64,000 nt of DNA from an uncultured Planctomycetales bacterium (GTDB lineage: Bacteria; Omnitrophota; Gorgyraeia; Zapsychrales; JANLHA01): positions 63,104 to 127,103 of the forward strand of contig CAZAXH010000003.1 in NCBI GenBank assembly GCA_964489065.1. Reading direction: 5' to 3'. The notes under the pieces are model-generated. The model was not told the origin of the DNA and ran no database searches. It saw only the letters and a list, made by a program, of their open reading frames with translations. Shown one piece after another: positions 5,145 through 20,159 of the stretch. Made by a program: the position numbers and the translations under genes. How positions within the stretch are numbered: the stretch's first letter is position 1; every line of letters starts with the position of its first letter.

Positions 5145-5999
5145 TTAAAAATCTTTAAAACTACTAATCTTCCAAATCATAAAGGCCCCTATAATTTCCG
5201 AAAAAACCGCATAAACAAGCATCCCTCTTCCTATCGTGGATTTAAACATATGATCAAAAAAGGTCGGATTTGTCCCATAAATAATCATAAAAAACATAAC
5301 GGGCAGAGCCGACATAACAACGCCTTGTATCTTCCCCTGAACAGTCAACGTATCTATCTGGGATTTGATTCTTTTTTGTTCACGAATAACATTCACAATA
5401 CGCTGAAAAATGCTGGGCAAGTTTCCTCCTGTTTCCCTGGCCAACAAAATAGCCGTTGTCATCTGCTGGACAGCAGGAGAAGGTTGCCGATTATAAAGGT
5501 GATTCAGGGCTTCGTCCAAAGAAACCCCCATATTATTTTCCCCTAAAACAATCGAAAATTCCTGATTTATAGGATCTGGCATTTCTTCCACAACCGCTTC
5601 CATAGCTTGAACCAAACTCAATCCTCCGCGGAAGGAACTGGACATAATCATAAGGGCATCTATCAACTGGTCATCGAATTTCCTCCTGTTTTGCCCTATA
5701 AGAAGGTTATTATAAACCCCAGGAAAAATTAAACCAAAAACCAAGCCGATTCCTATGCCAAAAAGCCGCAAGTCTTCCGGGAAAAACATATAACAGCCCC
5801 CGCCAAAAACAATAGGAGCGATAACATAAAATCGGGTAATTTTTTCGACTTTGGACCGAGGCAAAACCCTGTCCAACCGGGAAGAAAGCTTGTGCGCCCG
5901 TTTCTGTCCGACCTCCACCGATTTGTTATAAATCAATGGAATAACAAAATAGCCAAACATTGTGGCCGATATAAATATACAAAATAGAGAAACATACAT
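5145..5999 (-). CDS. tadB: Tad pilus assembly inner-membrane protein TadB-like (T2SS F-domain family)
   Basis: 284 aa, TM helices; GspF-like motifs DDQLIDALMIMSSSFRGGLSLVQAMEAV...ARETGGNLPSIFQRI. Confidence 0.7.
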   Translation of the reverse strand: MYVSLFCIFISATMFGYFVIPLIYNKSVEVGQKRAHKLSSRLDRVLPRSKVEKITRFYVIAPIVFGGGCYMFFPEDLRLFGIGIGLVFGLIFPGVYNNLLIGQNRRKFDDQLIDALMIMSSSFRGGLSLVQAMEAVVEEMPDPINQEFSIVLGENNMGVSLDEALNHLYNRQPSPAVQQMTTAILLARETGGNLPSIFQRIVNVIREQKRIKSQIDTLTVQGKIQGVVMSALPVMFFMIIYGTNPTFFDHMFKSTIGRGMLVYAVFSEIIGAFMIWKISSFKDF

Positions 6000-6023: not shown

Positions 6024-6464
6024 CTAATAATCAATAAGCTCTCTGCCTACATCCCTACAACGCGCCCCTGCTGCGGTTGATTCACTGCATCCTTCCAAAC
6101 ACTGCAGACACTGCGTGATGTACCCTGTTGTTCCTGGCGGCAGAGTACAGTCGCATGGCGCCGCATCGTAACAATCGCGTGAAATCCACCGGTTAATTAA
6201 CGTACACGGCCGTGTCGGGCCTGTTCCCGAGGTGCAATGCGTGGCATCAAAAAAACACTCTAACGTCCCGCCTCCGTCTCCATAATTCCCAAAAGGCCGG
6301 GGATCATACTGACGTCCCGCGCCAAAAGAATCTCCGGCCTTTTTCCAACTGCCATAATAAGCCCTTAAAATATAACCTTGAAAAACAAATAAGCTAGAAA
6401 GAAGAAAAACAATCAAGGTCATATACTCTAATATAGATTGGGCATGCTTCTTGTGCCGCAACAT
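6024..6464 (-). CDS. Cys-rich Flp/TadE-family prepilin-like protein (146 aa)
   Basis: N-terminus MLRHKKHAQSILEYMTLIVFLLSSLFVF has a class-III (Flp-type) signal, but with Ala rather than Gly before QSILEY; C-terminal part contains 10 Cys. Confidence 0.5.
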   Translation of the reverse strand: MLRHKKHAQSILEYMTLIVFLLSSLFVFQGYILRAYYGSWKKAGDSFGAGRQYDPRPFGNYGDGGGTLECFFDATHCTSGTGPTRPCTLINRWISRDCYDAAPCDCTLPPGTTGYITQCLQCLEGCSESTAAGARCRDVGRELIDY

Positions 6465-6496: not shown

Positions 6497-9400
6497 TTAG
6501 TTCAGCCCATTAAGAAAATTTTCGTCACACTCCACAAAACGAACCCGAAAGCCTTTATCTCCGCTATAGCCGGAACCGCCTCCCAAAAAATATTGCGCGC
6601 AGGTTGCCGTTGAATATCCGTATCTTAATAAACTTTCATGAATAAAATTCCAGCAATCCAAATACTCCGCCGAACCTCTCGGAGGCGTGGCGCTGGCTGT
6701 GGGTGTTTGGTTAATCATAAACGCATTTCTCCACCCCCATTCCCAGGTTTGGGCCGCGATATTGGGGTCAATCATAATAGCGCAAGTGACCTCCAAATCC
6801 GTCGGGTCCTGATCTGACCCTTCCGGATGATAATATTGCGGTTTCCATAAAAGGGTGCCATCCGGAAAACGTATTTTACTACCAACCGTGTCTTCATCAT
6901 AACGGATCACCCGGGCCTTAACACGGCCTGTCATCTCCTTCAATTCATAACAACGTTTCATCCCCCAACTTTTTGTATAGGTATCAATATACGGCCACCG
7001 ATCTGTTCCACATGCGCTGTTGCACCGCCCGGGAGTTCGCACCTCCACCTTAACAACATGCCAGTCTCCCCGGATTGTATTATAAACATCTTTGGGTTCG
7101 TCCTGCCAAGCATAAATGGCAAAAGACGTGGTGGCCGGAGGATAAATATTCCCCCAAGATTTACAGGCGTCAATAAGACCTTGAGCCGGACCGGAAAGAA
7201 AAGCATCAATATGGCTAAGCCCGTTCCATAATATATTTCTTATCTGAATCGCTTCTTCCTCGCGTCCTGCGAGCATTTCCCAACGCTTTGCCATTTTCAT
7301 TGACTGGTTCGCCGCAGCCAAAACACTCTGGTCTAATAAGTCTTTCCATTCTCCGGGGTCGGTTTCACCGCACGACCCAATGTTAGTATCCAATGCTGTT
7401 TCAATGGCATCAAAGAACGGGGTTGCGCCGACGCCGCAAAGCTGGCCACAGGTCCCCAAAAGATCTGTCGGCAACCCATACCAGGTACAAGAACAATTCA
7501 ATGCGTCGGATAAAACCGTGGGGCTGTCACAATCAATAGTTGTTGCCTGATCCCGGCATTGGTTCGGGAGGTTTAACGTTGGGTTAGCATTGCAAAAAGC
7601 ATACATAGCTCTTAAATTTGTTAACAGAGATGTATCTGGGGCAGGCAAAGTGGCGTTGTCAGATGTGGGAACAAAAGCAGGAATCCCGTACCCGCCAGGC
7701 AACGAAGAACAATCATCATTGCAGGTTGGAATAGACTCTGTACCCAAGCACAAAGTTAACGCGATCAAATCCGCCTCGGGCATAGGAATCGTGAACCGTA
7801 AGGCATCAAACCCAGGGACAAGCGACCTGGGCAATATCGCGCAACTGTGGCCGGAATTCATAGGATCGTTGTCACAATCCCACTTACACGCATCAAATTT
7901 CTCAAAATTTCCCACCGCCTGGGAACCAGTTACAGGATAAATAATCGGATTCCCGGATGCATCCTGCGCCAGATCATGAAGATTCCATTCCAGACAAGCA
8001 ATAACATCCTCTAAGTCGCCCCGGCCATCCCCGCTAACATCAAAAGACGCCTGTTCTTCCTGGCTTACCCCGGGACACTCCAAACCGTTATATCCTGACT
8101 GAAAACCCAGATATGCGGGATCCGCATATTTATTAGCAGCAACCTGCGGGGGCGGAACACACCAAACCGCCGGGTCAACCGCCGCACTATTGATAAAACA
8201 CCCGGAACCAACATAAAGATCCGCGTCGGGAGGATTCAGCCAGGCCCCAATTGGAATATAAAAAGAAGCCAAATCTTCGCGCCAAATATACCAGTATCCG
8301 CCATCCACATCCCCGGTGCAGCTCCCCGGACAATCCGCAGCATTCCCGCTCGGGCACGGCGTTTCAATCCAGGTCGCGGCTTCCTCGTACCACTCATCGA
8401 AATGGGATTCCAGGTAGTCCTTATCTTTATCCATAACTCCCGTCGCCCACTCATAAAATTCCGGCAACCCATAAATAAATTCATCTAATTTATCATCGGG
8501 CCAATTTGTGGACACATATTCAAAATTATTTGCTGCCTGCGTCCTGTCTATGGGCGGCGTCGGCGGTAAGGCCCCGCCTGTCCCGCAATCACAATCAATC
8601 GGCCAGGTTGTCCCTGTTTCTGGGTCCACTTCCACGCAAGGAGGAGATCCTCCGGGAGGGGCGCCGGCTTTTCTGCATTCGGCCATATAAGGCCATTCAT
8701 CCGGCGGATCACAGAATTGATCGCCACCTCTTTTCCAACCGCCTTCATCCTGCGCGCAAACAGCGTCGTCGGCCAAAATAGCATCAATGTTCGGCACCAA
8801 ATCCAGTAGCTGCGGTGGATCTCCGTCCGCCCCGGTGTTTGCGGCATCCACACACCAACCGCCGCTATACAAGGCATTATCTGGCGTCTCAGGAAGCTCA
8901 AGCGCGGTGCCAATCTCCGCCGGATAAGAAGTTATTCCGGCACAAACAGCCGGGACTGTTCCTGCGGCAACACCATCCACATCACATAAATGACACTCCA
9001 AATTGTCCCGGGCCGGGTGAATATCAGGAGGATCAGGAAGCAACGCGCCATAAGTTAACGACTGTAAATCCATGCCCCAATCCGCCAATTTATAAAAAAA
9101 CGGAAAAATACCAGGCTTATCGTCGGCAGAATAATAACCGGTTGCGTCTTCCATATAGAAATCATATTCCAAAGCGCCGGAACGGATCAGCTGAGAGTGG
9201 TCCAGGGTCGCCCCGGTGCCATCAATCAAATAATTCCAATTCGGCCTGGCTGGATTAACTGCATATTGATGATGTTCGTCGTCAAAACCAAACCATTCAC
9301 GAAATGAAATGTTGGCCGGATCCCAAGCGCCGGCATTTTTATTATTCGTGGAATCTTCGTTCATCCCTCTAAAAATATACGGATAAGACAACAAAGCATT

Positions 9401-10546
9401 AGGCGCGGCCGGAGGAAGAGGCGTGTGATATGGGCTTCGTTGATTACAAGTGGCAGGATTCCCTCCGGGAAAGCCCTCCTCCTCCACGCAAGTTCCCGTG
9501 CCACAACAAGCGGGACGAACAGAAGCATCGACACAACAGGGATCACACATAGAAGGAAAACGCATATCCCCGACAGGGTTGGACGGGCAACATGGATGCC
9601 CGGGGTTACGCTGACAATCAATGGGATCAACAAGACCCCAATCATCGGTGTCACACCCCCAATCCGTACAGATATCGGGGTTACCTCCATACAAGAAATC
9701 CGTAAGCGCGGATAAGAATTCGTCAAGGATTGATAAATTTAAATCCGGGATACCCTGAAGCCGACGGGTATAATAATAGGCAAAACGGGAAATATAATCC
9801 GGACCCGAGGCTTTATCATTAGGATCAGCCAAATTGCCAAAGGCGCTGTCGGTATCAAAGTCGAATAAATCCGGTATTTGAGCGGGGTCATTCACGGCCG
9901 TCATCAAAGCACTTTGTACCCCCAACTCCACAGCCATTTCTTTCGGCCCCAGGGAATCTCCCATCATTTTATTCCACATGGACGTTATGCCAGGCTGGGT
10001 TATCGTTACATCAATCACAGCAGCGGCCACGACAAGCACCGCGGCAACAATCGCGGCGGCCAAACCCCAGCCTTCACATTGATATGTCGCCGCACAAATA
10101 ACGACAAGAACCACGACAACAATGGCCGCAATGAGTTTGACCAAAAATCCGGTCCAGGCACAAATCTTCGTTTCTCCATCCAAAGAGGTCATAAACAGCA
10201 TCTGACCATAACTGGCAATAAAAGACGCCATTTTAGAGGCCGCCGTGTTAGCGGCAATGATTGTCAGGGTTTTGCCGTGAGAAATTCTGCCAATATTAAC
10301 CGTGACCGCATATAAAATCAATCCTATCGCCGCGGCTAAAATCAGAATTAAGCCAACCTGTCCGGCAATGTGTCTGGAAGGAATGGTTGGAGTAGTTAAG
10401 GAAGCGCCTTCCTCTTTGGGAGCCAAGAAAAAAGCATTCCATTTTTTCCTTTGCCATTTCCTCGCCTTTCTCACTCCTTTATATAAAAAATGCAACAAGT
10501 TGGCCCCCGGGGTAAAAATGTTAAGATTAAGGCGTTTCCTCTCCAA
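6497..10546 (-). CDS. Giant (1349 aa) Cys/Asp/Pro-rich, probably extracellular protein with N-terminal TM helices; candidate pilus-associated adhesin or tip protein
   Basis: Uninterrupted ORF; hydrophobic N-terminal segments (LILILAAAIGLILYAV, LIAAIVVVVLVVICAATY, AAAIVAAVLVVAAAVI), then Cys-rich stretches (CTDWGCDTDDWGLVDPIDCQRNPGHPCCPSNPVGDMRFPSMCDPCCVDASVRPACCGTGTCVEE) and many DP/DxD motifs; start overlaps the upstream TadE-like gene by about 20 nt (operon-like). Confidence 0.6.
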   Translation of the reverse strand: MERKRLNLNIFTPGANLLHFLYKGVRKARKWQRKKWNAFFLAPKEEGASLTTPTIPSRHIAGQVGLILILAAAIGLILYAVTVNIGRISHGKTLTIIAANTAASKMASFIASYGQMLFMTSLDGETKICAWTGFLVKLIAAIVVVVLVVICAATYQCEGWGLAAAIVAAVLVVAAAVIDVTITQPGITSMWNKMMGDSLGPKEMAVELGVQSALMTAVNDPAQIPDLFDFDTDSAFGNLADPNDKASGPDYISRFAYYYTRRLQGIPDLNLSILDEFLSALTDFLYGGNPDICTDWGCDTDDWGLVDPIDCQRNPGHPCCPSNPVGDMRFPSMCDPCCVDASVRPACCGTGTCVEEEGFPGGNPATCNQRSPYHTPLPPAAPNALLSYPYIFRGMNEDSTNNKNAGAWDPANISFREWFGFDDEHHQYAVNPARPNWNYLIDGTGATLDHSQLIRSGALEYDFYMEDATGYYSADDKPGIFPFFYKLADWGMDLQSLTYGALLPDPPDIHPARDNLECHLCDVDGVAAGTVPAVCAGITSYPAEIGTALELPETPDNALYSGGWCVDAANTGADGDPPQLLDLVPNIDAILADDAVCAQDEGGWKRGGDQFCDPPDEWPYMAECRKAGAPPGGSPPCVEVDPETGTTWPIDCDCGTGGALPPTPPIDRTQAANNFEYVSTNWPDDKLDEFIYGLPEFYEWATGVMDKDKDYLESHFDEWYEEAATWIETPCPSGNAADCPGSCTGDVDGGYWYIWREDLASFYIPIGAWLNPPDADLYVGSGCFINSAAVDPAVWCVPPPQVAANKYADPAYLGFQSGYNGLECPGVSQEEQASFDVSGDGRGDLEDVIACLEWNLHDLAQDASGNPIIYPVTGSQAVGNFEKFDACKWDCDNDPMNSGHSCAILPRSLVPGFDALRFTIPMPEADLIALTLCLGTESIPTCNDDCSSLPGGYGIPAFVPTSDNATLPAPDTSLLTNLRAMYAFCNANPTLNLPNQCRDQATTIDCDSPTVLSDALNCSCTWYGLPTDLLGTCGQLCGVGATPFFDAIETALDTNIGSCGETDPGEWKDLLDQSVLAAANQSMKMAKRWEMLAGREEEAIQIRNILWNGLSHIDAFLSGPAQGLIDACKSWGNIYPPATTSFAIYAWQDEPKDVYNTIRGDWHVVKVEVRTPGRCNSACGTDRWPYIDTYTKSWGMKRCYELKEMTGRVKARVIRYDEDTVGSKIRFPDGTLLWKPQYYHPEGSDQDPTDLEVTCAIMIDPNIAAQTWEWGWRNAFMINQTPTASATPPRGSAEYLDCWNFIHESLLRYGYSTATCAQYFLGGGSGYSGDKGFRVRFVECDENFLNGLN

Positions 10547-10823
10547 AAATATTGCTATTAACTGTCGCGTTTATTTTTGTAATCGAATAAAACATCGGCC
10601 GGACCTGTTCTAACGGACCCGCTGGCTGAGACGTGCTTATAGGAGAAACTAACAAGGCATCGTGAGAATTAAAACGCTTCATCAAATCAGTCCCTGTCCA
10701 GGCAAAGACCTGAATCATGCCAACGACAAGCAAAACAACCCCGATCATCCCGAACATAAATTCTAAAGACACTTGTCCCGGGCGAATATTTTTTTTAAAT
10801 CTAGTCTTTCCGTTTTTTTTCAT
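10527..10823 (-). CDS. tadE: TadE-like pseudopilin (Flp-family N-terminus G/QVSLEF)
   Basis: MKKNGKTRFKKNIRPGQVSLEFMFGMIGVVLLVVGMIQVFAW; start at the second Met (10823) is supported by GAGGGG placed 7 nt upstream; the ORF track start 10838 lacks an RBS. Confidence 0.6.
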   Translation of the reverse strand: MKKNGKTRFKKNIRPGQVSLEFMFGMIGVVLLVVGMIQVFAWTGTDLMKRFNSHDALLVSPISTSQPAGPLEQVRPMFYSITKINATVNSNIFGEETP

Positions 10824-10843: not shown

Positions 10844-12559
10844 TTACGGGGCATATCTTCTAATCCAGCGCCTCCCTCTTAGATCGGCAATCCGGCTTCT
10901 CACAAATAACATTAAATTATCCCGGTCAAAACACGTCAATTGTGCGACCCCCGCCATATAACAATTTGTTCCTGTGCTTGGCCGGGTACAAACCTCAACC
11001 GGATTGGGGATTCCGTAAACGCCGTTAGCGCTCGCCCAAGCGGAAGTTCCCCATTCTCGGGGATTCACGTCATCCGCACAAAACCGACCGGTGTCTCTTG
11101 TCAACTGAACTTGTCGCTCAATCACATCTAATTGATCATGCCGTTCCGTGCTTCGGGTATATTGCGACGTATTAGCCGTAAAAATAGGGCCTTCTTCCGT
11201 CCTAAAATAGGTCCCCTGGCCTGTTTCCTGGCCTGGATCAGATTCTGTAAATGTATATACCTGTGCGCCTTCTGAAAAACCAACCGTGCGGGCGAGACAT
11301 TTATAATTTGAACAGACGCCCAAAGTGTTGTTTCCGGTCGTCGTTGATCCAATAACACAATTCCCTGTCGGGGTGGCGCCGCAAGCCCCGCCTATGGTTC
11401 CGGCAAAACGCCATTCCCCTGCCTGGCGGGCATCGGACATAAAAGAGCTGGACATGTCGCCTTCTTCGCTGTCAATTACGTTCACGGTTTGAAGCACTCC
11501 GGACCCCAAGGCTGAATAACTCAGGATGGACTCTTCATAATAATCCCCATCAACATCAACGCTTTCATTCTTCGAGGACTTTTCTCCGCTGGGATCAACA
11601 AAAATTCCCGGCACCCCGCTCCACGGCAAAGTCATCGCTGTTCCATCGACGACTCCGGCTACTAAAAACCACTGCCAAAACTGAATATCCCGGCTCCCGG
11701 CCGGGACATCAGGCACGCCATCAAAATCATAATCAAAGCGGATATCTTGAGGAAGATTGTTACAATTTTTAACACATGTTGTCCCGAAACAGCATGTTTT
11801 ACTTTTGGGATAATTCCCTGAAATGGTAAACAGCAACGTGCAACCTGCGGAGTTCGTTACTAAATCATATTCTCCTGTGCCGGTCCCTCCGGTCGCATAA
11901 ACACATTCCCCCATATAACCTAATTCATAATCTCCGCCATAGCCCACATAAACACAGCTTGAATAACTAACACAACTATTCCACCAACACAGCCCATAAG
12001 GAGGGCTTGCTGGCGGGGCGTTGGAATTAAAATACGCCGGAGCCGAGCCGTTACACGCGGGGATCCAAGATGGCCGGCTTCCGTCAGAATTCGCCAGAGT
12101 AACCGATTTAAAATCCGCGCCCAATAACGGAAAACGTTGCCCATTGATATAAACATCCGAAAGAGGAAGATCCCTTCGATCTCCAAAATCTGTCGGCCGG
12201 AACAAATTTTTTGTCATGGAAGCACTGGCGCTGGCTGTCATAGGGAACCTGTCCCGGGATCCAAATTTTTTACCAGCATCAACATTCAATCTGTCTTCCA
12301 AAATAACAATAGAGGCTACATTCCGGGAATTGGCTCCCTCGTCACCGGCAAAACCAATATATTCACCTTCAGAAGTCCGGTAAGACTCACTCAAAGCAAG
12401 ACGTAAAGCCCGTAATTGCATATTATTAAGCATGCTGGCCTGCATTCCAGATTTAATAATAGAGCCAATGATAAAAATAAGCATGGCCCCAAAAATAGCC
12501 AGTTCCGTTCCTGACTGCCCCAACCGAGAAACTCGAAATGTCCGCGACTCTCGTTTCAT
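10844..12559 (-). CDS. tadG: TadG-like large pseudopilin: TadE-type N-terminus (RLGQSGTELAIFGAMLIFIIGSII) followed by a large Cys/Gly/Thr-rich domain (571 aa)
   Basis: Class-III signal G/QSGTELAI; C-terminal region rich in Cys (CWWNSCVSYSSCVYVGYGG...KTCCFGTTCVKNCNN). Confidence 0.6.
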   Translation of the reverse strand: MKRESRTFRVSRLGQSGTELAIFGAMLIFIIGSIIKSGMQASMLNNMQLRALRLALSESYRTSEGEYIGFAGDEGANSRNVASIVILEDRLNVDAGKKFGSRDRFPMTASASASMTKNLFRPTDFGDRRDLPLSDVYINGQRFPLLGADFKSVTLANSDGSRPSWIPACNGSAPAYFNSNAPPASPPYGLCWWNSCVSYSSCVYVGYGGDYELGYMGECVYATGGTGTGEYDLVTNSAGCTLLFTISGNYPKSKTCCFGTTCVKNCNNLPQDIRFDYDFDGVPDVPAGSRDIQFWQWFLVAGVVDGTAMTLPWSGVPGIFVDPSGEKSSKNESVDVDGDYYEESILSYSALGSGVLQTVNVIDSEEGDMSSSFMSDARQAGEWRFAGTIGGACGATPTGNCVIGSTTTGNNTLGVCSNYKCLARTVGFSEGAQVYTFTESDPGQETGQGTYFRTEEGPIFTANTSQYTRSTERHDQLDVIERQVQLTRDTGRFCADDVNPREWGTSAWASANGVYGIPNPVEVCTRPSTGTNCYMAGVAQLTCFDRDNLMLFVRSRIADLRGRRWIRRYAP

Positions 12560-12579
12560 AGCGTAAAAATTACGGCGTA

Positions 12580-12888
12580 TTAATATGCGGCAACTCTTGA
12601 TGCCCCGTATTTCTCCTCAGTCATATTGGAATCATCATCCCGCATCGTCCACACCCCGGCATTCACCGGAATTGTGGTAATACGTGTAGAAGAAAATCCG
12701 CTGGTTCGTTCGGTAATATCTGTATTGGTCACCCTAGGGTCATATTGGTCTCCCATCCCGTCAACGGATTCCTTCCACCGCCCCTGAACCCCCCGCTTAA
12801 AATATGTGCCCATCCCCAGGAATACTCCCAAAATAATCGTAATCAGCGTCACATATTCCAAGGTGCTTTGTCCGCGTAATAACCTCAT
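12580..12888 (-). CDS. flp: Flp-family prepilin paralog 7 (102 aa, extended C-terminus)
   Basis: MRLLRGQSTLEYVTLITIILGVFLGMG: G/QSTLEY processing motif plus hydrophobic helix. Confidence 0.7.
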   Translation of the reverse strand: MRLLRGQSTLEYVTLITIILGVFLGMGTYFKRGVQGRWKESVDGMGDQYDPRVTNTDITERTSGFSSTRITTIPVNAGVWTMRDDDSNMTEEKYGASRVAAY

Positions 12889-12915
12889 ACTCCCTACCCT
12901 CTTTTTTAAAACTTT

Positions 12916-13254
12916 TTAATTATCTCTATACTGAAACCCCAGATTGGTCGTTGTCGTCGTGACCATTTGCGAATACGAACCATCATAATCAAGCCGCGTT
13001 TCCCCAAAATCTTCCCTTAACCTTTTAACAGAAGCTTGCTCCGTATCAACAATCTGTTCGACCAAATGGCCGTCGAGACCTCCGGGCTGCTCCGCCCCGG
13101 ATTGATTGCCGACCTGATCAGAAACAACCCTGACCATCCCCTGCACCGCTCGTCTCAACATGGGGGTGAGAGAAATCAAGACCGCCACTACGACACTAAC
13201 TAGCATAGCATACTCTAAAAATGTTTGCGCAGAATTTTTATGTTTTCTTCTCAT
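12916..13254 (-). CDS. flp: Flp-family prepilin paralog 6 (112 aa)
   Basis: KNSAQTFLEYAMLVSVVVAVLISL (A/QTFLEY); Thr-rich C-terminus. Confidence 0.65.
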   Translation of the reverse strand: MRRKHKNSAQTFLEYAMLVSVVVAVLISLTPMLRRAVQGMVRVVSDQVGNQSGAEQPGGLDGHLVEQIVDTEQASVKRLREDFGETRLDYDGSYSQMVTTTTTNLGFQYRDN

Positions 13255-13271
13255 TTTTTATTAAAAAAGCC

Positions 13272-13628
13272 TTAATCGGCCAGCGCCGGCGGTAACTGTG
13301 TTTGATTTGTGATTGCACTGATTTGATGTTCGTAAAGCTGTTCGACAATACCTGAGCCTAAAGGAAAAGCCCCTTCTTCTGTCATGGTCGTTGTCGTGTC
13401 CGTGTATCTTGTCGTCATTGAATTGCTATAATACGGCTCATATTGATAGTAAAAAGTTCCCGTATAATCATCCTGTACTGTGCTGGCCATATAATGCAAC
13501 GCATCTCTCGTTCTTCCCTGCAACAAACGTCGGACATAAGTTCCCATGACCGAAATAATTGACACAACCACAAAAAATGTCGTAGCGTATTCAACAAAAG
13601 AGTTTTGACCTTTTTTATTAAGCTTCAT
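13272..13628 (-). CDS. flp: Flp-family prepilin paralog 5 (118 aa)
   Basis: MKLNKKGQNSFVEYATTFFVVVSIISV; C-terminal QYEPYY motif shared with paralog 3. Confidence 0.7.
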   Translation of the reverse strand: MKLNKKGQNSFVEYATTFFVVVSIISVMGTYVRRLLQGRTRDALHYMASTVQDDYTGTFYYQYEPYYSNSMTTRYTDTTTTMTEEGAFPLGSGIVEQLYEHQISAITNQTQLPPALAD

Positions 13629-13750
13629 ATATATTATTTAATGTTCAAACTGATTATAAATAAAGTATGGCTTACCCGAAAGTTGTTTTCCCCCTCAAGT
13701 AAGCCACACTTTATTTAGCTTAAGTCATTCTGGTTATTTAATAAACAAAA

Positions 13751-14071
13751 TTAACCCCAGAACTCCTGTTCAGCATTAATGATAACCTGGTTCTGCAATG
13801 TCTCGGTAACTTCATCCGTATTCAATGTCGTGGTAGAAACACCATAGCCGAATGTTTCAGCCGTGTTACTAACAGTGGTTACAACGCGACGGATGTTCGA
13901 GTTGCCCGGTGAATATTGATCACCGATATCGTCTGTTGCACTCTTTAATCTACCCTGCACACCTCTTTTGATGTAAACTTGGATAGATAAAAGAGCACCG
14001 ATGACGATGATAATCAAGACGGCGTACTCTAAAGTACTTTGCCCTTTTATTTTTCTTAGAAACTTAAACAT
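13751..14071 (-). CDS. flp: Flp-family prepilin paralog 4 (106 aa)
   Basis: KIKGQSTLEYAVLIIIVIGALLSI; GGGAGG RBS immediately upstream of the start. Confidence 0.7.
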   Translation of the reverse strand: MFKFLRKIKGQSTLEYAVLIIIVIGALLSIQVYIKRGVQGRLKSATDDIGDQYSPGNSNIRRVVTTVSNTAETFGYGVSTTTLNTDEVTETLQNQVIINAEQEFWG

Positions 14072-14125
14072 TGAAAATTCCTCCCTATAAAATTCAGATT
14101 TTCGTTACACTAAGTTATCTGGATC

Positions 14126-14500
14126 TTAGATACCATTAATTACACCAAAATTGGTGTCATAGTTTGATCTCTGAAAACCGCCATCAGCACGGGTTCTGTT
14201 GCTGGTGGTATCTAACTGGAACAACCCAGAGGAGTCTGCTCTCATGCCCTGTACTTCTTCTTCCCTGTCATCACGCAGGACATTGTAATCAGATTCCAGA
14301 TAATAAGGTTCATACTGGTTGGTTCTACCCAAGGCGCTTGTGGAATCTGTCAAATAAGCAGAAGCGTCACGAATTCTCGCCTGAATGGTTCGTTGCGCAT
14401 AAGTTTGCATAGCAATGACCGCCGCGACAACAAGGGAAATTAACAGCGCGTATTCGGCTGTTTGCTGTGCTTTTTTATTTTTAATTAACTTTCTAAACAT
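14126..14500 (-). CDS. flp: Flp-family prepilin paralog 3 (124 aa)
   Basis: KNKKAQQTAEYALLISLVVAAVIAM; C-terminal NQYEPYY motif. Confidence 0.65.
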   Translation of the reverse strand: MFRKLIKNKKAQQTAEYALLISLVVAAVIAMQTYAQRTIQARIRDASAYLTDSTSALGRTNQYEPYYLESDYNVLRDDREEEVQGMRADSSGLFQLDTTSNRTRADGGFQRSNYDTNFGVINGI

Positions 14501-14539
14501 TTATGTTTCCTCCATTTACTTTTGTCTCTTGATAATTAA

Positions 14540-14746
14540 TTACGGATTATCATAACGAGATGTTTGTAACCGATTGGCCATATCAAACATGCCATTCGTA
14601 CCCGTACGCAAGGTTGAATTAAACGCTTGGTTAAAAATACCATTAGTCGGGTTTAAGAAAATAATCAGAATGGCAATAACACCTGTCACCAAAATAATAT
14701 ACTCGAGGGTGCTTTGCCCTTTCTTTTTTCTGTTCTTGTATACCAT
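14540..14746 (-). CDS. flp: Flp-family prepilin paralog 2 (68 aa)
   Basis: MVYKNRKKKGQSTLEYIILVTGVIAILIIF; AGGAGG RBS upstream. Confidence 0.75.
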   Translation of the reverse strand: MVYKNRKKKGQSTLEYIILVTGVIAILIIFLNPTNGIFNQAFNSTLRTGTNGMFDMANRLQTSRYDNP

Positions 14747-14811
14747 TAGTAATTCCTCCTATAGTTTGATCCACACCACTCAAAGCTAGGCGGGTTTTCC
14801 CTCCCGCCACT

Positions 14812-14961
14812 TTAATCTTTGAATCCTTCTGAAATCACCTGCTGTGTTGCCTGAATTGATCTAAACACGTAGGTGCTCATGGCAAGCATGGCTGACGCGA
14901 CTAAGGCCACGACGATGGCATATTCTACTATGTTTTGTCCTTTTTCTTGTTTCCATGGATT
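14812..14961 (-). CDS. flp: Flp-family prepilin paralog 1 (about 50 aa; start taken at an internal Met with a strong RBS)
   Basis: MGHNPWKQEKGQNIVEYAIVVALVASAMLAM; GGAGGTGA 8 nt upstream of the ATG at 14961; the longer ORF to 15036 has no RBS. Confidence 0.7.
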   Translation of the reverse strand, partial: NPWKQEKGQNIVEYAIVVALVASAMLAMSTYVFRSIQATQQVISEGFKD

Positions 14962-15167
14962 ATGCCCCATCGCGCCTTCACCTCCGTGCCCACAGATGAT
15001 TCGTACCCAACTCTTGCAACCTAAGAGTGGATTCACTCCGGGCTATATTACCGGATATTTCCGGTATCCTCCAGATTTGGGTCAAAAAACATAACAAAAA
15101 TCTGGAGGATTAAACCCCCGACAAAAGGGGTAAAAAGCTAATTTTAAAATTATGAAAGAGCTAAAAC

Positions 15168-15210
15168 AGAAACGGTTTCTTTATAAACTTAAAGAAACCG
15201 TTTTTAAAAA
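15168..15210 (-). terminator. Perfect 15-bp inverted repeat (GAAACGGTTTCTTTA ... TAAAGAAACCGTTTC) with flanking T/A runs; putative terminator after the 570-aa gene, or an operator upstream of the pilin array
   Basis: Direct reading of the palindrome between the stop of the 570-aa gene and the first flp gene. Confidence 0.35.
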
Positions 15211-15375
15211 AGCGCAGACAACACCTGTCGCTTTTAGATATCTTAAAATAATCTGGAAGAAAACTCTAAAATTTTTTGTCATATTATGACCTATCATTTG
15301 TTTTCCCAGCGATGAATGAAGTATATCATAATATATTACAAAATGTCAAGGATTGAATCTTGGGGCGAAAAGGGA

Positions 15376-17088
15376 TTATTGTCGACGGGAAAAAATTTTC
15401 ATCATCAATTTTTTTCCATGAAAAGTCACGATGTTTCTTTCATTAATTCGCGTCACGGCTGACTTCAGCTCCTCAAAACAGGCATAATCATTACCGGGGA
15501 TGAGCAGAACTTGCATCGCCTCGGGATGAGCCGAAATAGTTCCCGAAAGAGGAAGAATTATGTCCTTCAAATGCACCGGAAGTAGGCTTGTTTTCCCGGA
15601 AGAAAAATAGGTTTGCCAAGCATAATGTGCTAAAAATTCAGAAAAAATTTTTTTAATATTAATATTTCTATTAATATTATATTTATTTCCTTGAAATAGC
15701 AGGAATTGAGAATCTTTGGCCTTGACTTTTCCAACAGAATAATTAAATCCTCGTTGAAAATTAGGCCAACGACGATAGTATGTCTTTATTACATCACTGG
15801 CATGATACAAATTATTCGGAGCATTGGTTAATATGACAGCAAAAGGACTTGCCGTCGGATTTTCTTTTAACGGAAAAACACGTAACCCCAATCTTGGTTG
15901 AAAATCATCATCAAAAGGAAGCGTTGTTAAAGTTTCAAAAAAATACACGCAATCCTCGAAAAACGGATCAACAAATTTTTCTAATTTATTGCTTCGCAAG
16001 GATTTCAGCAAAGGATAAAACTCTGGTTGCCAAGGCCACAAACATGTAATGAAATATCTTTTTTTAGGGGGAATATAATCAAAACAGGCGACTTCATTCC
16101 TTTCTACATCTAACAGAGAAACCTGAATAATTTTTTTCCCTTCCTTATTATCAAAAGCCCCGCATAGATCTAAAAACTGCCGGGCACAATATGCGTGTTG
16201 AGATAAATTTTCTTTGATGTTTAAGATTGGACAAAAACAAAAAACAACAGGTTGGACATTACTGATTATCTCTTCAGAAATTGTTTTGGTACACTGTGTT
16301 ATGGTATTAAAAAATGGCAAATCTGAATCTTTTGTCCAAACTGAACTCATTTCCGCATCTAAAAACAAATTTTCACCATTCTCTAATTTCAACTGAACAA
16401 AAAACACCTGCGTCATGTAATATTGCAAATTTATCATGAACTTCAACACAATTTCTTCCCAATTTTCCATGCTGCTTAATTCTGACAATAATCCTTCTGC
16501 ATTAAAGCCCCTCTTGTCACTTTGAGAAAGGCCTTTTATCCAAAGCCCTTCAGAAATTTCATTTTTTTCAAAAATTTCCATATAAAGCAATTTTTCAACC
16601 AAGCTGTTAATTTGAATGTCTTCTAAAAACGAAAACCTTTCGGAAAAAATCTCTGCCAAAAAAGGTTCCCGGAAAAGCTCCCATTCTGCCGCTTTTATAA
16701 ACATATAACCAACATCTGGAATAACCTGACAATCTTTTTTTGACGTATCAATGTTTGGGAAGGAGGCTTCTTTTTGAATAGCCGTTTTTACTTCCAAAAG
16801 ATCTTTGGGGCATGTTTGCAAAGTTGACTTATTTATTAATGCTTTTCTGGCCCTTTTTCTAGGTGCCAAAGGTTTTTTTTCTAAAGGTGCGTTTAAAGTT
16901 CTTCTTCCTACCGGACTGTTAAGGTTAGCTTCTTTCAAAACAGCGCTAATGGAAGATTTAGATAATTTAATTACAAATTTTTTATAAACCAAATCGGAAA
17001 GCTTTCGGCAGCTTAAGGCCGGACTCGCGGCTTTTTCAGCCACAATAAAATCAATGACCTCTTCTGTAAGTTTATATACGACACCCAT
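15376..17088 (-). CDS. Hypothetical protein (570 aa) with an N-terminal HTH-like region; AT-rich gene interrupting the Tad locus
   Basis: Long ORF; N-terminus LTEEVIDFIVAEKAASPALSCRKLSDLVYKKFVIKLSKSSISAVLKE resembles an HTH; the rest could not be assigned; composition is visibly more AT-rich than neighbouring genes. Confidence 0.5.
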   Translation of the reverse strand: MGVVYKLTEEVIDFIVAEKAASPALSCRKLSDLVYKKFVIKLSKSSISAVLKEANLNSPVGRRTLNAPLEKKPLAPRKRARKALINKSTLQTCPKDLLEVKTAIQKEASFPNIDTSKKDCQVIPDVGYMFIKAAEWELFREPFLAEIFSERFSFLEDIQINSLVEKLLYMEIFEKNEISEGLWIKGLSQSDKRGFNAEGLLSELSSMENWEEIVLKFMINLQYYMTQVFFVQLKLENGENLFLDAEMSSVWTKDSDLPFFNTITQCTKTISEEIISNVQPVVFCFCPILNIKENLSQHAYCARQFLDLCGAFDNKEGKKIIQVSLLDVERNEVACFDYIPPKKRYFITCLWPWQPEFYPLLKSLRSNKLEKFVDPFFEDCVYFFETLTTLPFDDDFQPRLGLRVFPLKENPTASPFAVILTNAPNNLYHASDVIKTYYRRWPNFQRGFNYSVGKVKAKDSQFLLFQGNKYNINRNINIKKIFSEFLAHYAWQTYFSSGKTSLLPVHLKDIILPLSGTISAHPEAMQVLLIPGNDYACFEELKSAVTRINERNIVTFHGKKLMMKIFSRRQ

Positions 17089-17386: not shown

Positions 17387-17629
17387 ATGATCAAATGTCC
17401 CTACTGTTACGAAATGCTTCCTTCGACAGAAAATCTACGTTGTCCACATTGTTTACAATTTATCATTGATTCGGCAATAACCACAGACTTCCCTAGTCTT
17501 GATAAAAAACACTGTCTTTTTTGTGGGAAAAAAATATTATTGGAAGCTAAAATTTGCCGGCATTGTAAACGCTGGCTTGACGAAATCGAACAGGCCGCCA
17601 GAGATATCGATCCAGAAGACCTGGTTTAA
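17387..17629 (+). CDS. Small zinc-ribbon protein (four CxxC pairs)
   Basis: MIKCPYCYEM...CPHC...CLFCGKK...CRHCKRW; 80 aa. Confidence 0.45.
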   Translation: MIKCPYCYEMLPSTENLRCPHCLQFIIDSAITTDFPSLDKKHCLFCGKKILLEAKICRHCKRWLDEIEQAARDIDPEDLV

Positions 17630-17997
17630 CAGAACTCATTCGGATTTGGCTTTTCCTCCTCCAAGAGAAGGGCGTCTCCTTTTTCTGTTCGAGAAGAATC
17701 AATCACCCCAACGGGTAATTCTATTGCTTTTTTGGCCCGGAAAAAATACGGGCTTATTTGGAAGGGTTTAATATTTCTGACCAATCCTAAAACCTTATTA
17801 TTTTTATTAACAAAAATAACATCTATGGCAAAACGCATAAAAAGCATATGGATTTGCCGGCACTCTGTAATCACCAACCCTTCTTCTGGAGACAGGGATC
17901 CACGGTTAAGAAGGCCAACCAAACGAGATACAACCGTATCGGCTAACTGAGCCCGTTCGGCAATAAGTGTACCTTTTGTTTGATTAGTGATACGCAC
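17626..17997 (-). CDS. DUF192 family protein
   Basis: LIAERAQLADTVVSRLVGLLNRGSLSPEEGLVITECRQIHMLFMRFAIDVIFVNKNNKVLGLVRNIKPF matches the DUF192 pattern (GLm.r...G..l......iHm.fM.f.iDviF.d....v). Confidence 0.6.
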   Translation of the reverse strand: MRITNQTKGTLIAERAQLADTVVSRLVGLLNRGSLSPEEGLVITECRQIHMLFMRFAIDVIFVNKNNKVLGLVRNIKPFQISPYFFRAKKAIELPVGVIDSSRTEKGDALLLEEEKPNPNEFC

Positions 17998-20159
17998 TAG
18001 CTTTTGGAGGGTTTAGAAAACATCTGCTTATCAATAGAAAGCCCCATAGTCACAAAATCCTCAAAACTTTTCGGAATATACCCCGTTGCTTCATGATCAC
18101 CGATAATCGTTCCGTTTTCATCAATGCCTTTCTGATTAAAAATAAAAATATCCCGCAAATCCAAGGCATGGTCACTCGTCAGCCCAACAACTTCTGTTAT
18201 CCCGGTAATTTTCCTGGAGCCATCGGAAAATCTGGCCACGTGAACAATAAGGTCGATGGCCGAAGAGATCATGTCGTTAATGGCCCGCATCGGCAACTCA
18301 ATGCCACTTAGAAGAATCATAGAGCTCATACGAACCAAAACATCCCGGGTAGAATTAGCATGCAACGTGGTCATAGAACCGTCATGCCCCGTATTCATAG
18401 CCTGTAACATGTCCAGGACTTCTGGGCCTCGACATTCCCCAATAAGTATACGATCCGGCCGCATACGTAAAGAATTTATAAAAAGATCCCGAATAGTCAC
18501 GGCGCCCTTGCCTTCAATGTTCGTCGGACGGGACTCCAGCCGTCCCCAATGGCTCTTTTTCAGCCTTAATTCCGCAGCGTCCTCAATCGTAATAATACGT
18601 TCGTTATCCGGAATAAACTGTGAAATAACATTTAATAACGTGGTCTTCCCGGAACCGGTCCCGCCTGAAACAATTATATTTTTTCTCGCAAGAACACACG
18701 CCTGTAAAAATTCTCTCATGATCTTGCTGAAACTGCGATATTTTTGTTCCAGGTCTTCGACATCCAGTCTCTCTGCGCCGAATTTACGAATAGTGATCAT
18801 CGGACCATTTAAAGAAAGCGGAGGAATTATGGCGTTAAAACGGGACCCGTCCGGAAGGCGGGCGTCCACCATGGGGGTTGATTCATCAATGCGGCGCCCC
18901 AAAGGCGCGATAATACGGTCAATGATCGCCCGCATTTGCTGGTCGGAAACAAATTTTCTGTTCGTCAAAATAAGCTTCCCGTGTTTTTCAATATATAACT
19001 CATCTTTATTATTTCCCATAATATCCGAAACATCGGGATCAGCCAAAAACTCTTCTAGCGCCCCTAATCCCAAAGCCTCGTCAACAATTTCTTTTACCAG
19101 CCTCCGGCGTTCTTCGTGAGAAGAAATCATCGCCCCTTTCTCTTCAATAAGTAAATTGCTGACAATTTTCCTGGCGTCATCTTTCAATTCTGCCGCTTTA
19201 GCCGGATCGCTGAGGTTGTCGGGACTTAAATCCTCTATGTTAAGCCGGCTGACCAATTTTTCATGAATCCTTCTCTTTAAAGAAGTAATTTCATCCTCTT
19301 CTTTTGAAAAAACGCCTCCGGGAATATTTTGTGGCGTAATGCCAAATTTTTCCCAAAACTTACCCGGTTTATCTAGCCCTTCGGTGTTTCTTTCTTTTTC
19401 AATTTCAAAAGCCTGAACAAAAAGTTCTTCTTTCTTCAGGTCGTTCACCATCCGGCTAAAGGCTTCGGTGACAGGGCTCTTGGGCGAATCAATAATCACG
19501 GGAACCCCGCGATTTAAGGCCATGCCTACAGCGCGCCCATCCGAAGGAATACGAGAGAAGATTTCGCAGGCCAAAGCCGAACGGACCTCCTGCCAAGCAA
19601 CACCTCCCCGGCTTTCCGCGCGGTTTAAAATCAACTTAACCATTTTTAACGGAAAATGCAGACTCTGCAACATCTCTAAACACCACTTCACCTGATATAC
19701 GGCCAAAACATCGGGGGTTGCGACAAGAAAAATAACGTTACAGTGATCGAGCACCGTTAACATCGTTTCGCTGAACAATTTTCCAACATCAACAATGATA
19801 AAGTCGTAAACCTGCCCCACCTTTCTGAAAAAAGGTTTAATGTTTTCAGACGAGATATGTCCGGCTTGTTTGGCATGTAAAACGCCCGGAAGGAAATCCA
19901 GCCCGCTGGAATGAGAGCTGACGTATTTTTTGATAACTTCCGCATCTTCGCTTTTTTCTATTTCAGCCAATAAATTAACCAAGCTGTTTCGTGGCGCCAA
20001 ATTTAACATACGCGCCATGTCATGCGTAGCCTGAAAATCCATATCAAGCAACAAAACCCTCTTCCCCGACAAAGCTAACGCCGTTGCCATATTAACGCTG
20101 ACAAATGTTTTCCCAACACCGCCTTTATTGCTAAAAACACTGATTATTTTTGAACTCAT
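17997..20159 (-). CDS. tadZA: Fused Tad pilus ATPases: N-terminal TadZ/CpaE-like ParA/MinD-family domain plus C-terminal TadA/CpaF secretion ATPase
   Basis: N-terminus VFSNKGGVGKTFVSVNMATALALSGKRVLLLDMD (deviant Walker A); C-terminal half NIIVSGGTGSGKTTLLNVI, ITIEDAAELRL, TGHDGSMTTLHANS (CpaF/VirB11-type Walker A, Asp box, His box); 720 aa in a single ORF. Confidence 0.8.
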   Translation of the reverse strand: MSSKIISVFSNKGGVGKTFVSVNMATALALSGKRVLLLDMDFQATHDMARMLNLAPRNSLVNLLAEIEKSEDAEVIKKYVSSHSSGLDFLPGVLHAKQAGHISSENIKPFFRKVGQVYDFIIVDVGKLFSETMLTVLDHCNVIFLVATPDVLAVYQVKWCLEMLQSLHFPLKMVKLILNRAESRGGVAWQEVRSALACEIFSRIPSDGRAVGMALNRGVPVIIDSPKSPVTEAFSRMVNDLKKEELFVQAFEIEKERNTEGLDKPGKFWEKFGITPQNIPGGVFSKEEDEITSLKRRIHEKLVSRLNIEDLSPDNLSDPAKAAELKDDARKIVSNLLIEEKGAMISSHEERRRLVKEIVDEALGLGALEEFLADPDVSDIMGNNKDELYIEKHGKLILTNRKFVSDQQMRAIIDRIIAPLGRRIDESTPMVDARLPDGSRFNAIIPPLSLNGPMITIRKFGAERLDVEDLEQKYRSFSKIMREFLQACVLARKNIIVSGGTGSGKTTLLNVISQFIPDNERIITIEDAAELRLKKSHWGRLESRPTNIEGKGAVTIRDLFINSLRMRPDRILIGECRGPEVLDMLQAMNTGHDGSMTTLHANSTRDVLVRMSSMILLSGIELPMRAINDMISSAIDLIVHVARFSDGSRKITGITEVVGLTSDHALDLRDIFIFNQKGIDENGTIIGDHEATGYIPKSFEDFVTMGLSIDKQMFSKPSKS

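Follow-up and report, generated by a model that had tools for sequence, protein, structure and literature searches.

A conserved array of seven tandem prepilin-type genes in the Tad pilus locus of Omnitrophota

Why should a single pilus locus carry seven different prepilin genes in a row? The question is raised by a 64,000-nucleotide stretch of DNA (hereafter the window; contig CAZAXH010000003.1 of assembly GCA_964489065.1) from an uncultured bacterium deposited as Planctomycetales and placed by GTDB in the phylum Omnitrophota. Between positions 12580 and 14970 of the window, seven successive open reading frames (ORFs) on the reverse strand encode prepilin-like proteins of 52, 68, 124, 106, 118, 112 and 102 amino acids (aa), which we call g1 to g7 in the order of transcription. 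The array is part of a complete locus for a Tad (type IVc) pilus, with dnaA, dnaN, gyrB and gyrA at a distance of about 10 kb. In Omnitrophota the Tad locus is a main genomic argument for a predatory or parasitic life; it is a known marker of that lifestyle and is expressed in V. archaeovorus, and the components analysed there were TadB, TadC and RcpA, not the pilins (PMC10066038). A full-text literature search that combined Omnitrophota, Omnitrophica or V. archaeovorus with pilin or pilus found no paper describing this array. An initial annotation, made from the sequence of the window, had called the seven genes Flp prepilins with enlarged C-terminal domains and had suggested antigenic or functional diversification, or a heteropolymeric filament. 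Our analysis makes it very likely that g1 to g7 are genuine Tad pilins, each with a role that is distinct and not redundant. The explanation that we favour, with a probability of about 0.55, is that they make up the set of pilins conserved in the Tad pilus of Omnitrophota, in which g1 would form the shaft, g2-g7 would be accessory pilins and the large proteins encoded downstream would form a tip complex.

Seven paralogs with one prepilin layout

The seven proteins have the same layout, namely a short basic leader, a glycine (Gly) or alanine (Ala) at position -1, a glutamine (Gln), three or four residues, the pair EY and about 20 hydrophobic residues. The first gene, g1 (14812-14970, on the reverse strand like all features below unless stated otherwise), encodes a 52-aa Flp-like prepilin that begins MGHNPWKQEKG/QNIVEY (the slash marks the cleavage site), has a mature part of 41 aa that is essentially one helix, and is preceded by a GGAGGTG Shine-Dalgarno sequence; its ATG lies at 14970, so that the array begins slightly upstream of the limit of 14961 first given to it. 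The second gene, g2 (14540-14746), encodes a 68-aa prepilin (KKKG/QSTLEY) with a mature part of 58 aa and a helix broken by proline. The mature products of g3-g7 are longer, at 91-113 aa. Among them, g3 (14126-14500; 124 aa, KKA/QQTAEY) carries the motif QYEPYY and a predicted C-terminal hairpin; g4 (13751-14071; 106 aa, IKG/QSTLEY) carries GDQYSP and a threonine (Thr)-rich C-terminus with a final EFWG; g5 (13272-13628; 118 aa, KKG/QNSFVEY) carries YQYEPYY; g6 (12916-13254) encodes 112 aa with the signal NSA/QTFLEY; and g7 (12580-12888; 102 aa, LRG/QSTLEY) carries GDQYDP and a long predicted beta-hairpin. All seven have the cleavage motif G/XXXXEY and, after it, a hydrophobic helix, the variants being Ala at -1 in g3 and g6 and a glutamate (Glu) at +6 in g5.

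When the pattern M.{1,16}[GA]Q.{3,4}E[YF] was applied to the window, it matched 9 of the 716 ORFs of at least 40 aa, and all 9 lay within the Tad locus on the reverse strand, a clustering of prepilin signals far beyond chance. The two matches outside the array belong to a 98-aa gene (10527-10823) and a 146-aa gene (6024-6464); together with a 571-aa protein encoded next to g7, they are further prepilin-like genes that the description of the array as seven genes had not taken in. The start of g6 differs from the automatic call on the source contig (L001, 11295-11585), which begins at an internal methionine, gives a protein of 96 aa and deletes the class III signal. As 63 of 63 orthologs keep this signal, we prefer the start that gives 112 aa.

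For comparison across species, we scanned one genome per GTDB species with the g3 alignment as the query and obtained 80 loci from metagenome-assembled genomes (MAGs) of Omnitrophota, from MAGs named uncultured Planctomycetales or Planctomycetia, and from a few with another phylum label or none; orthology and gene order were then established with profile hidden Markov models for each gene in 81 loci. Gln at +1 was found in 76/76, 78/78, 79/79, 74/74, 57/64, 63/63 and 63/63 orthologs of g1 to g7, respectively. At -1, Gly and Ala interchange in every orthogroup but g2 (78/78 Gly), and Ala is present in 67 of 79 orthologs of g3, 33 of 63 of g6 and 25 of 64 of g5; in a set of 27 g3 sequences, both Ala at -1 and QYEPYY were invariant. 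The two Ala variants had been picked out correctly in the window, and because Gly and Ala interchange within orthogroups, Ala at -1 is an accepted and conserved state, not a defect. Glu is fixed at +5 in six groups, the exception being g5, in which it stands mostly at +6 and in eight orthologs at +5. Thus, the class III signal proposed for all seven proteins holds, but the uniform spacing G/Q-x-x-x-E-Y does not extend to g5. The variable spacing of Glu in g5 could mark a relaxed N-terminal salt bridge, for example at a terminal position in an assembly.

Of the sequence features noted further along the proteins, QYEPYY is limited to g3 and g5, and the related GDQY[SD]P is found in g4 and g7. 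The Thr-rich tracts, which had been read as possible glycosylation sites, are borne out across the orthologs, with Thr making up 10-18% of the C-terminal parts versus 5.9% of the machinery proteins; such richness is also expected of exposed beta-strands.

The paralogy of the seven genes is well supported. All pairs among g1-g7 gave hhalign probabilities of 94-99.9%, and the segment TY..R..QGR is common to g1 and g2-g7; with the Tad machinery lying on both sides, the reading of the array as seven intact tandem prepilin-type paralogs of a Tad system is sustained. The closest pairs were g3/g5 (99.8% over 91 columns), g4/g7 (99.9%) and g7 with the 146-aa protein (99.1%), which is therefore an eighth paralog and is called p146 below. 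The family label Flp, on the other hand, does not apply to all of them. The Flp_Fap model (PF04964) matched g1 with 26.9 bits (E 4e-6), below its gathering threshold of 32.2 bits, and matched 64 of 73 g1 orthologs at E<=0.01 (best E 3.2e-7), but it gave no match to g2-g7 even at E<=1. The Class_IIIsignal model (PF04021, threshold 23.7 bits) was passed by g2 with 31.2 bits, while g3 stayed below it with 14.4 bits and the other five gave no match. No match to TadE (PF07811) was found for g1-g7 at E<=1, no curated Pfam or NCBIfam threshold was reached by g3-g7, and an NCBIfam scan of the seven proteins and their neighbours returned nothing meaningful. Sequence searches of the PDB, for which g1, its orthogroup profile and the g3 profile served as queries, revealed no significant match; the best were pilin N-termini (E 0.013-1.9), including the Flp chain 8U2B (E=1.9). 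A mature part of 40-60 aa without a beta domain was found in g1 and arguably in g2, and not in g3-g7. These findings reveal that only g1 is Flp-like, and that g2-g7 and p146 form an uncurated family with an Epd-like signal (see below), an N-terminal helix, a QY[ED]P motif and a Thr-rich predicted hairpin. The family is large: the g7/g4 type by itself accounts for 889 clusters at 50% identity (E<=1e-10), the few named ones being from Omnitrophota plus one MAG labelled Phycisphaerae, and g3 has 822 homologs, many of them full-length, at 60-97% identity. The named homologs of the array belong to Candidatus Omnitrophica/Omnitrophota, and exact protein matches traced the locus itself to a metagenome contig of Logan (SRR15237810).

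Conservation, ancestry and predicted fold of the array

The exact order g1-g2-g3-g4-g5-g6-g7 was found in 51 of the 81 loci, and the others are cut by a contig end, rearranged or provided with extra copies. The exceptions are of a few kinds. An extra g2-like gene lies between g4 and g5 in 11 loci (for example L033, L052, L058, L074 and L080), a second copy of g2 precedes g3 in 3 loci, and g1 has moved to a place after g4 in L013 and L059. In addition, the triplet g2-g3-g4 has been duplicated as a unit in four lineages (L013, L032, L049 and L072), with copies that are 60-100% identical; in a few species the g3 copies of the duplicated triplet have diverged to 63-67% identity. Each gene of the array nevertheless forms its own orthogroup with a fixed position in about 80 species.

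Selective constraint was evaluated from the ratio of nonsynonymous to synonymous substitution rates (dN/dS), a comparison that the initial annotation had recommended. Between close genomes, the pairwise dN/dS was 0.02-0.3 for every gene of the array, and the array genes are under purifying selection. The DNA common to the paralogs amounts to only 14-32 nucleotides (nt), mostly in the part that encodes the signal, and the longest such stretch is 32 nt at 66-81% identity. No truncated cassettes, invertible promoter repeats or long DNA repeats were found in the array, and all copies are full-length with their own signal peptide. Because order and orthogroups are fixed, dN/dS is low and the common DNA is short, recent duplication, pseudogenisation and antigenic variation by cassettes are excluded; the frameshifted recent duplicates that had been considered at the outset are not what the array contains, as its genes are intact and fall into separate orthogroups. 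The seven genes are old, specialised subunits, not recent or fast-varying copies.

The constraint is not evenly spread along the proteins. Across the phylum, the mature N-terminal helices are 46-82% identical versus 28-47% for the C-termini. Helix identity is highest in g3 and g4 (80-82%; 82% over the first 38 mature residues of g4 in about 74 species) and reaches 67% in g1.

The relations among the paralogs also bear on how the array arose. Copies of the g2-like gene that some loci have between g4 and g5 resemble one another across species more than they resemble the g2 of the respective genome. Together with the pairing of g3 with g5 and of g4 with g7, this gene suggests an old duplication of a module like g2-g3-g4, and the sequence relations thus suggest that the ancestral array consisted of two modules, g2-g3-g4 followed by g2'-g5-g6-g7.

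To see what the C-terminal extensions might look like, AlphaFold2 was run with the family alignments of g3 and g7. In the g3 model, residues 2-56 form a helix with a high predicted local distance difference test (pLDDT) score (means of 76-96 in 10-residue blocks over residues 1-50). The g7 model has a helix at 9-44 and strands at 54-75 and 78-99, which make a beta-hairpin of 22+22 residues with a pLDDT of about 84. In addition, column conservation in the C-terminus of g7 has a period of 2, with autocorrelations of -0.49, +0.39, -0.30 and +0.42 at lags 1-4, as expected of strands with one packed face. The polar, Thr-rich extensions, which had been taken for enlarged domains, were therefore modelled as a two-stranded beta-hairpin and not as a globular fold, with low confidence in g3 and moderate confidence in g7. 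On these models, each extension would consist of a QY[ED]P turn and a beta-hairpin whose folding probably depends on partners. When the g7 model was compared with the PDB by Foldseek, nothing was found at E<=0.001. The top matches (E>=0.1) were long hairpins of pore-forming toxins and flagellar rings, which we take for generic geometry; as the g7 hairpin is polar, not amphipathic, no pore role is proposed for it.

Expression signals along the array

A sigma-70 promoter, TTGACA-N18-TATACT with a TG extension, lies at 15320-15349, about 350 nt upstream of g1, and agrees with the consensus at 11 of 12 positions. A near-consensus box was found at the same place, between g1 and the preceding gene for a 570-aa protein (orf570), in 42 of 42 loci tested, mostly with 11/12 positions. 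The g1 leader is 125-670 nt long across these loci, and its sequence is no more conserved than the locus background. In the window, the leader (14971-15319) holds two stem-loops, at 15170-15203 and 15104-15119, in addition to those in the spacers described below.

Translation signals differ along the array. A strong ribosome-binding site had been assigned to each gene, which is correct for five of the seven; g5 and g6 lack a Shine-Dalgarno sequence, and so do most of their orthologs. A Shine-Dalgarno sequence of at least 5 nt precedes 94-96% of the g2-g4 orthologs (g2, 94%) versus 11-44% of those of g5-g7 (g5, 11%; g6, 22%), and it is less consistent in g1 than in g2-g4.

Conservation at the DNA level revealed a similar division. 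In a sliding profile of close genomes, g1-g4 showed 91-98% identity versus about 80% for the locus background, and 13700-15070 of the window stands out as a stretch of raised identity in the comparisons with L003, L004 and other close pairs. In the pair with L003, the synonymous divergence (dS) of g2 is 0.046 versus at least 1.0 for g5-g7. The low identity of g5-g7 between close strains might be taken for a swapped cassette; this was rejected, as the profile shows that it is g1-g4 that are unusually conserved. Synonymous-codon identity, defined as the fraction of identical codons among conserved residues, was highest in g1 in 14 of 14 genome pairs (0.59-1.0 versus a locus background of 0.25-0.91), was raised in g2-g4 in close pairs only and stayed at background in g5-g7. 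The conservation of synonymous sites in g1 would fit strong selection in a highly expressed gene.

Two spacers have the potential to form RNA structures. After the stop codon of g1, a GC-rich stem-loop (14789-14808), flagged as a palindrome by a motif scan of the forward strand, is a possible attenuator or 3' stabiliser. The RNA of the 65-nt spacer between g1 and g2 (14747-14811, reverse strand) folds with -18.5 kcal/mol and a z score of -1.4, which is not significant alone. Across loci, z<-2 was reached by 34% of the g1-g2 spacers versus 7-18% of other short spacers, with hairpin sequences that differ. The spacer between g4 and g5 contains a terminator-like hairpin (13657-13717) made of an A-run, a stem of about 26 bp and a T-run, which folds with -38.8 kcal/mol and z -7.8. 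This spacer has a median length of 164 nt and a median z of -5.4 across loci, with z<-2 in 98% of them, and the stem sequence GGCTTAY...RTAAGCC recurs in 38 of 74 loci from very divergent species and nearly nowhere else in the loci. Such conservation of a terminator stem is unusual, and the stem may be a protein-binding or processing site. An Rfam search of 12400-15400 gave two chance-level matches only and none for the g4-g5 hairpin. Between g4 and g5, the best promoter match scored 8.25 versus 8.27 for shuffled sequence, and no conserved promoter was found past the hairpin.

Taken together, these proxies split the array into a putative high-output unit, g1 and then g2-g4, and a low-output unit, which would comprise g5-g7 and the downstream genes for the large proteins, p146, tadB and tadC. 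The resulting gradient, g1 > g2-g4 > g5-g7, is one predicted from promoter, Shine-Dalgarno, hairpin and synonymous-site signals.

The Tad locus and the roles of its pilins

In the direction of transcription, the locus encodes a peptidyl-prolyl isomerase, RcpC/CpaB, a secretin, a ParA-CpaF fusion, a DUF192 protein, the 570-aa protein, g1-g7, the 571-aa protein, the 98-aa protein, a 1349-aa protein, p146 and TadB-like and TadC-like proteins, and the Pfam domains T2SSE, T2SSF (twice), Secretin and RcpC flank the array. Pfam identified RcpC/CpaB at 22449-23252 and the secretin at 20357-22363, the latter with a C-terminal TonB_C domain (residues 581-656). The ATPase gene (17997-20159) encodes 720 aa, in which a ParA/MinD-like (TadZ/CpaE-like) part at residues 3-250 is fused to a CpaF/TadA-type T2SSE domain at 364-643; to our knowledge, the ParA-like protein (TadZ/CpaE) and CpaF are separate proteins in described Tad systems. 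The DUF192 (COG1430) gene (17626-17997) follows directly, having base 17997 in common with the stop codon of the ATPase gene, and is kept at the same place in 64 loci. Directly upstream of the pilin promoter lies orf570 (15376-17088), whose product has a weak N-terminal HTH_32 match only. An inserted insertion-sequence transposase was considered for orf570 and rejected, as 70 of 81 loci have the gene in the same position; it is a conserved but uncharacterised part of the Tad locus of Omnitrophota, as a component or a regulator. The five machinery genes upstream of the array, from RcpC to orf570, have homologs in 52-70 loci in the same order upstream of g1.

Downstream of the array, the 571-aa protein (10844-12559) has a prepilin-like N-terminus, RLG/QSGTELAIF, and is a candidate large tip pilin; it has homologs in 69 loci, downstream of the pilin array wherever the contig is long enough, and no Pfam or NCBIfam match was found for it. 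The 98-aa protein (10527-10823; RPG/QVSLEFMF...W.G.DL..R..HD) is a TadE-like pseudopilin present in 63 loci. The Pfam TadE model matched 11 of 50 sequences (best E 7e-5) in a set that combined 25 orthologs of the 98-aa protein with 25 N-termini of the 1349-aa protein, and we attribute these matches to the former, the output not identifying the members. The 1349-aa protein (6497-10546) has a pilin-like N-terminal transmembrane segment, AG/QVGLILILAAAIGLILYAVTVNIGR, without Glu, and is a candidate tip backbone that we take to be TadG-like; its homologs in 58 loci stand between the 571-aa protein and p146 wherever the contig is long enough. The eighth paralog, p146 (6024-6464; HKKHA/QSILEY...GRQYDP), is g7-like, and the tadB-like (5145-5999) and tadC-like (4225-5112) genes that follow both match Pfam T2SSF. 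Directly downstream of tadC, an ORF of more than 1193 aa (2-3580, reverse strand) that runs off the start of the window contains a Gly-zipper and a domain like Peptidase_C39 (papain fold); its product may be one more component of the locus or an effector. About 30 kb from the pilus locus, the window also encodes a stand-alone PilZ-domain protein of the cyclic di-GMP receptor type (53954-54334, forward strand).

We propose the following mechanism. The prepilins, with their class III signal of Epd/Tad type, would be cut by a prepilin peptidase encoded elsewhere, and the TadB/TadC platform and the fused TadZ-CpaF ATPase would extract the pilins from the inner membrane. The 41-residue mature helix of g1 would be the shaft subunit. 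Two accessory modules, g2-g4 and g5-g7, would each combine the polymerisation helix with the QY[ED]P turn and a Thr-rich beta-hairpin having one conserved face. These accessory pilins, p146 included, may be made in smaller, graded amounts. Serving as adaptors, for priming or as decoration, they would lie between the g1 shaft and a distal complex of the TadE-like 98-aa, 571-aa and 1349-aa proteins. The seven subunits are thus probably built for one composite pilus.

This proposal can be set beside several known systems. One of the closest is the Tad-like Kil predation pilus of Myxococcus xanthus, in which KilP is the major pilin, KilK and KilO are Flp-type adapters, and KilL, KilM and KilN (TadE/F/G-like) form tip trimers with large distal domains, roles that have been shown genetically (Herrou et al. 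2025, PMC12075869). Both systems have many pilins in the Tad machine of a predator (a putative one in Omnitrophota), 15 in Kil and at least 10 prepilin-like proteins here. Both also have small Flp-type helices, a TadE-like small pilin adjoining very large pilin-like proteins with distal domains, and graded transcription signals. In contrast to Kil, the extra pilins of Omnitrophota are one homologous family, for which matches to TadE, TadF or Kil proteins could not be detected, they form one fixed seven-gene array beside the machinery instead of four dispersed alternative tip clusters, and it is the small Flp-like gene that occupies the high-expression position. Canonical Flp pilins (PF04964; Aggregatibacter Flp1 and Caulobacter PilA, PDB 8U2B, 'Flp family type IVb pilin') resemble g1 in the short leader, the G/xxxxEY site, the mature helix of about 41 aa and the tad locus, but they differ from the array in that here +1 is almost always Gln, -1 may be Ala, and g2-g7 have 68-124 aa and no PF04964 match.

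The signal itself matches that of certain archaeal pilins. The EppA-dependent Epd pilins of Methanococcus maripaludis have a leader of 5-13 aa that ends in Gly, with Gln at +1 and Glu at +5 (PMC3875500), and the Epd system is the sister group of Tad (PMC6668835). Epd pilins (DUF361, PF04021) share with the array the leader, Gln at +1 and Glu at +5, g2 being above the PF04021 threshold, and their very short major pilin, accompanied by several essential minor pilins, would have its counterpart in the roles proposed for g1 and the accessory pilins. Unlike them, the array belongs to a diderm bacterium with a secretin and RcpC, often has Ala at -1 and is clustered in one place, with no EppA-like peptidase seen nearby. 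The minor-pilin sets of type II secretion systems (GspH-I-J-K) and type IVa pili (FimU-PilV-W-X-E) are similar to the array in that they consist of conserved, non-redundant paralogs in a fixed operon order, are made below the level of the major pilin, as is predicted for g2-g7, and include one member with an atypical Glu position. GspK-type tip pilins lack Glu5. These sets nevertheless have no sequence or fold relation to the array, their domains are globular alpha/beta folds and not a single hairpin, and their number and the two-module layout differ.

Several observations weigh against the roles proposed for g1, the accessory pilins and the tip. First, g2-g4 lie behind the promoter of g1 and have a more consistent Shine-Dalgarno sequence than g1, and the hairpin after g1 is weak (z -1.4); with a common promoter and so weak a hairpin, g2-g4 could be as abundant as g1. 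Second, the most conserved helices are those of g3 and g4, not of g1, and in Kil the short all-helical Flp proteins are minor adapters and a longer pilin is the major subunit, the opposite of the assignment made here (PMC12075869). Third, the g3 hairpin (residues 74-104) was modelled at low pLDDT, and a Pfam TadG-type match was looked for in the 1349-aa protein and not found, so that the label TadG-like has no database support. Finally, searches of the window and of the related loci of about 20 kb (L003-L082) revealed no A24-type ORF and no convincing motif of the GxGD[VAILFM][KR] type; the three GxGD-type matches in the related loci all fall in ORFs unlike a peptidase. The prepilin peptidase is therefore presumably encoded elsewhere, unlike in many tad loci, and processing of the prepilins is assumed. 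With these points in view, we regard the assignment of g1 as the major subunit, with g2-g7 as minor or adaptor pilins, as evenly balanced on the proxies available.

Among the alternatives, the one that survives best is a heteropolymeric shaft, in which g1-g4, and perhaps all seven, would be abundant and co-polymerise regularly, the helices forming the core and the hairpins of g3 and g4 an outer sheath. A heteropolymer had been suggested from the outset, along with functional diversification, and both ideas are still viable. A heteropolymeric shaft would account for g1-g4 being one unit behind a strong promoter with the strongest Shine-Dalgarno sequences at g2-g4, for the raised synonymous-codon identity of g2-g4 in close pairs, for the conservation of the g3 and g4 helices, for one conserved hairpin face, as expected for packing, and for the duplication of g2-g3-g4 as a unit. 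However, in distant pairs synonymous-site conservation is kept in g1 only, stem-loops are frequent after g1, the translation signals of g5-g7 are weak and lie behind a strong hairpin, and the Tad filaments that have been described consist of a single major pilin (PMC12075869; PMC11067988). The proxies favour unequal stoichiometry, a shaft with accessory subunits, over seven equal subunits, and we consider the heteropolymeric shaft possible but doubtful.

A more elaborate arrangement, which we put forward as speculative and rather unlikely, is a layered organelle with a three-start g1 shaft, heterotrimeric rings of g2-g3-g4 and of g5-g6-g7, and then the 98-aa, 571-aa and 1349-aa proteins. The conserved hairpin faces would zip the layers into a rigid collar with a giant host-binding or host-piercing head. 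If this were true, the order of the seven genes would encode the order of assembly, the pilin architecture would have no described counterpart, and the attachment of these nanobacteria to their hosts, or their attack on them, could be approached concretely.

It is also unlikely that the roles are inverted, with g3 or g4 as the major subunit and g1 as a low-copy Flp-type adapter like KilK and KilO. The precedent is the Kil pilus, whose 59-aa all-helical Flp proteins are adapters of a longer major pilin (PMC12075869); the helix identities across the phylum (80-82% in g3 and g4 versus 67% in g1) and the very numerous close homologs of g3 in metagenomes point in the same direction. Yet the near-consensus promoter has g1 as the first gene behind it in every locus, and the Flp model is matched by g1 alone.

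Less probable still is that g2-g7 are not filament subunits and that the Tad machine displays or releases them, as a bindosome-like assembly or as the cargo or pseudopilus of a secretion-type system. Archaeal sugar-binding proteins carry class III signals. Such signals thus extend beyond pilins in archaea, and the type IV filament superfamily includes the non-pilus 'bindosome' (Bas) (PMC6668835); g3-g7 stay below every curated Pfam and NCBIfam threshold, and their C-termini are polar and not confidently globular. Against this, all the proteins keep the full polymerisation helix with its Glu, as well as the TY..R..QGR segment that is common with g1, and it is in the helix that each protein is most conserved, a signature of packing between subunits.

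Finally, a repertoire for antigenic or phase variation, in which the paralogs would be alternative major pilins switched or recombined against recognition, is highly improbable, because the many tandem paralogs, the greater variability of their C-termini and the few species with duplicated triplets and diverged g3 copies are outweighed by separate orthogroups at fixed positions under purifying selection, by paralogs unlike in length, motifs and translation signals, and by common DNA that is too short, without the truncated, promoterless copies and long near-identical tracts of silent-cassette systems of the pilE/pilS type, so that the antigenic diversification first suggested is contradicted.

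The reading that we favour, a g1 shaft with accessory pilins g2-g7 and a downstream tip complex, leads to testable predictions on the stoichiometry of the subunits, the processing of substrates with Ala at -1 and attenuation at the g4-g5 hairpin. The array adds a large uncurated pilin family, and it extends the functionalisation of Tad pili by minor pilins (PMC12075869) to a different architecture. The machine itself is known and the phylum poorly known; what is new is the conserved, specialised multi-pilin set. For Omnitrophota, which are widespread, uncultured and mostly ultra-small bacteria, it provides a parts list of a probable host-contact organelle: eight ordered pilins, a TadE-like protein and two giant pilin-like proteins.

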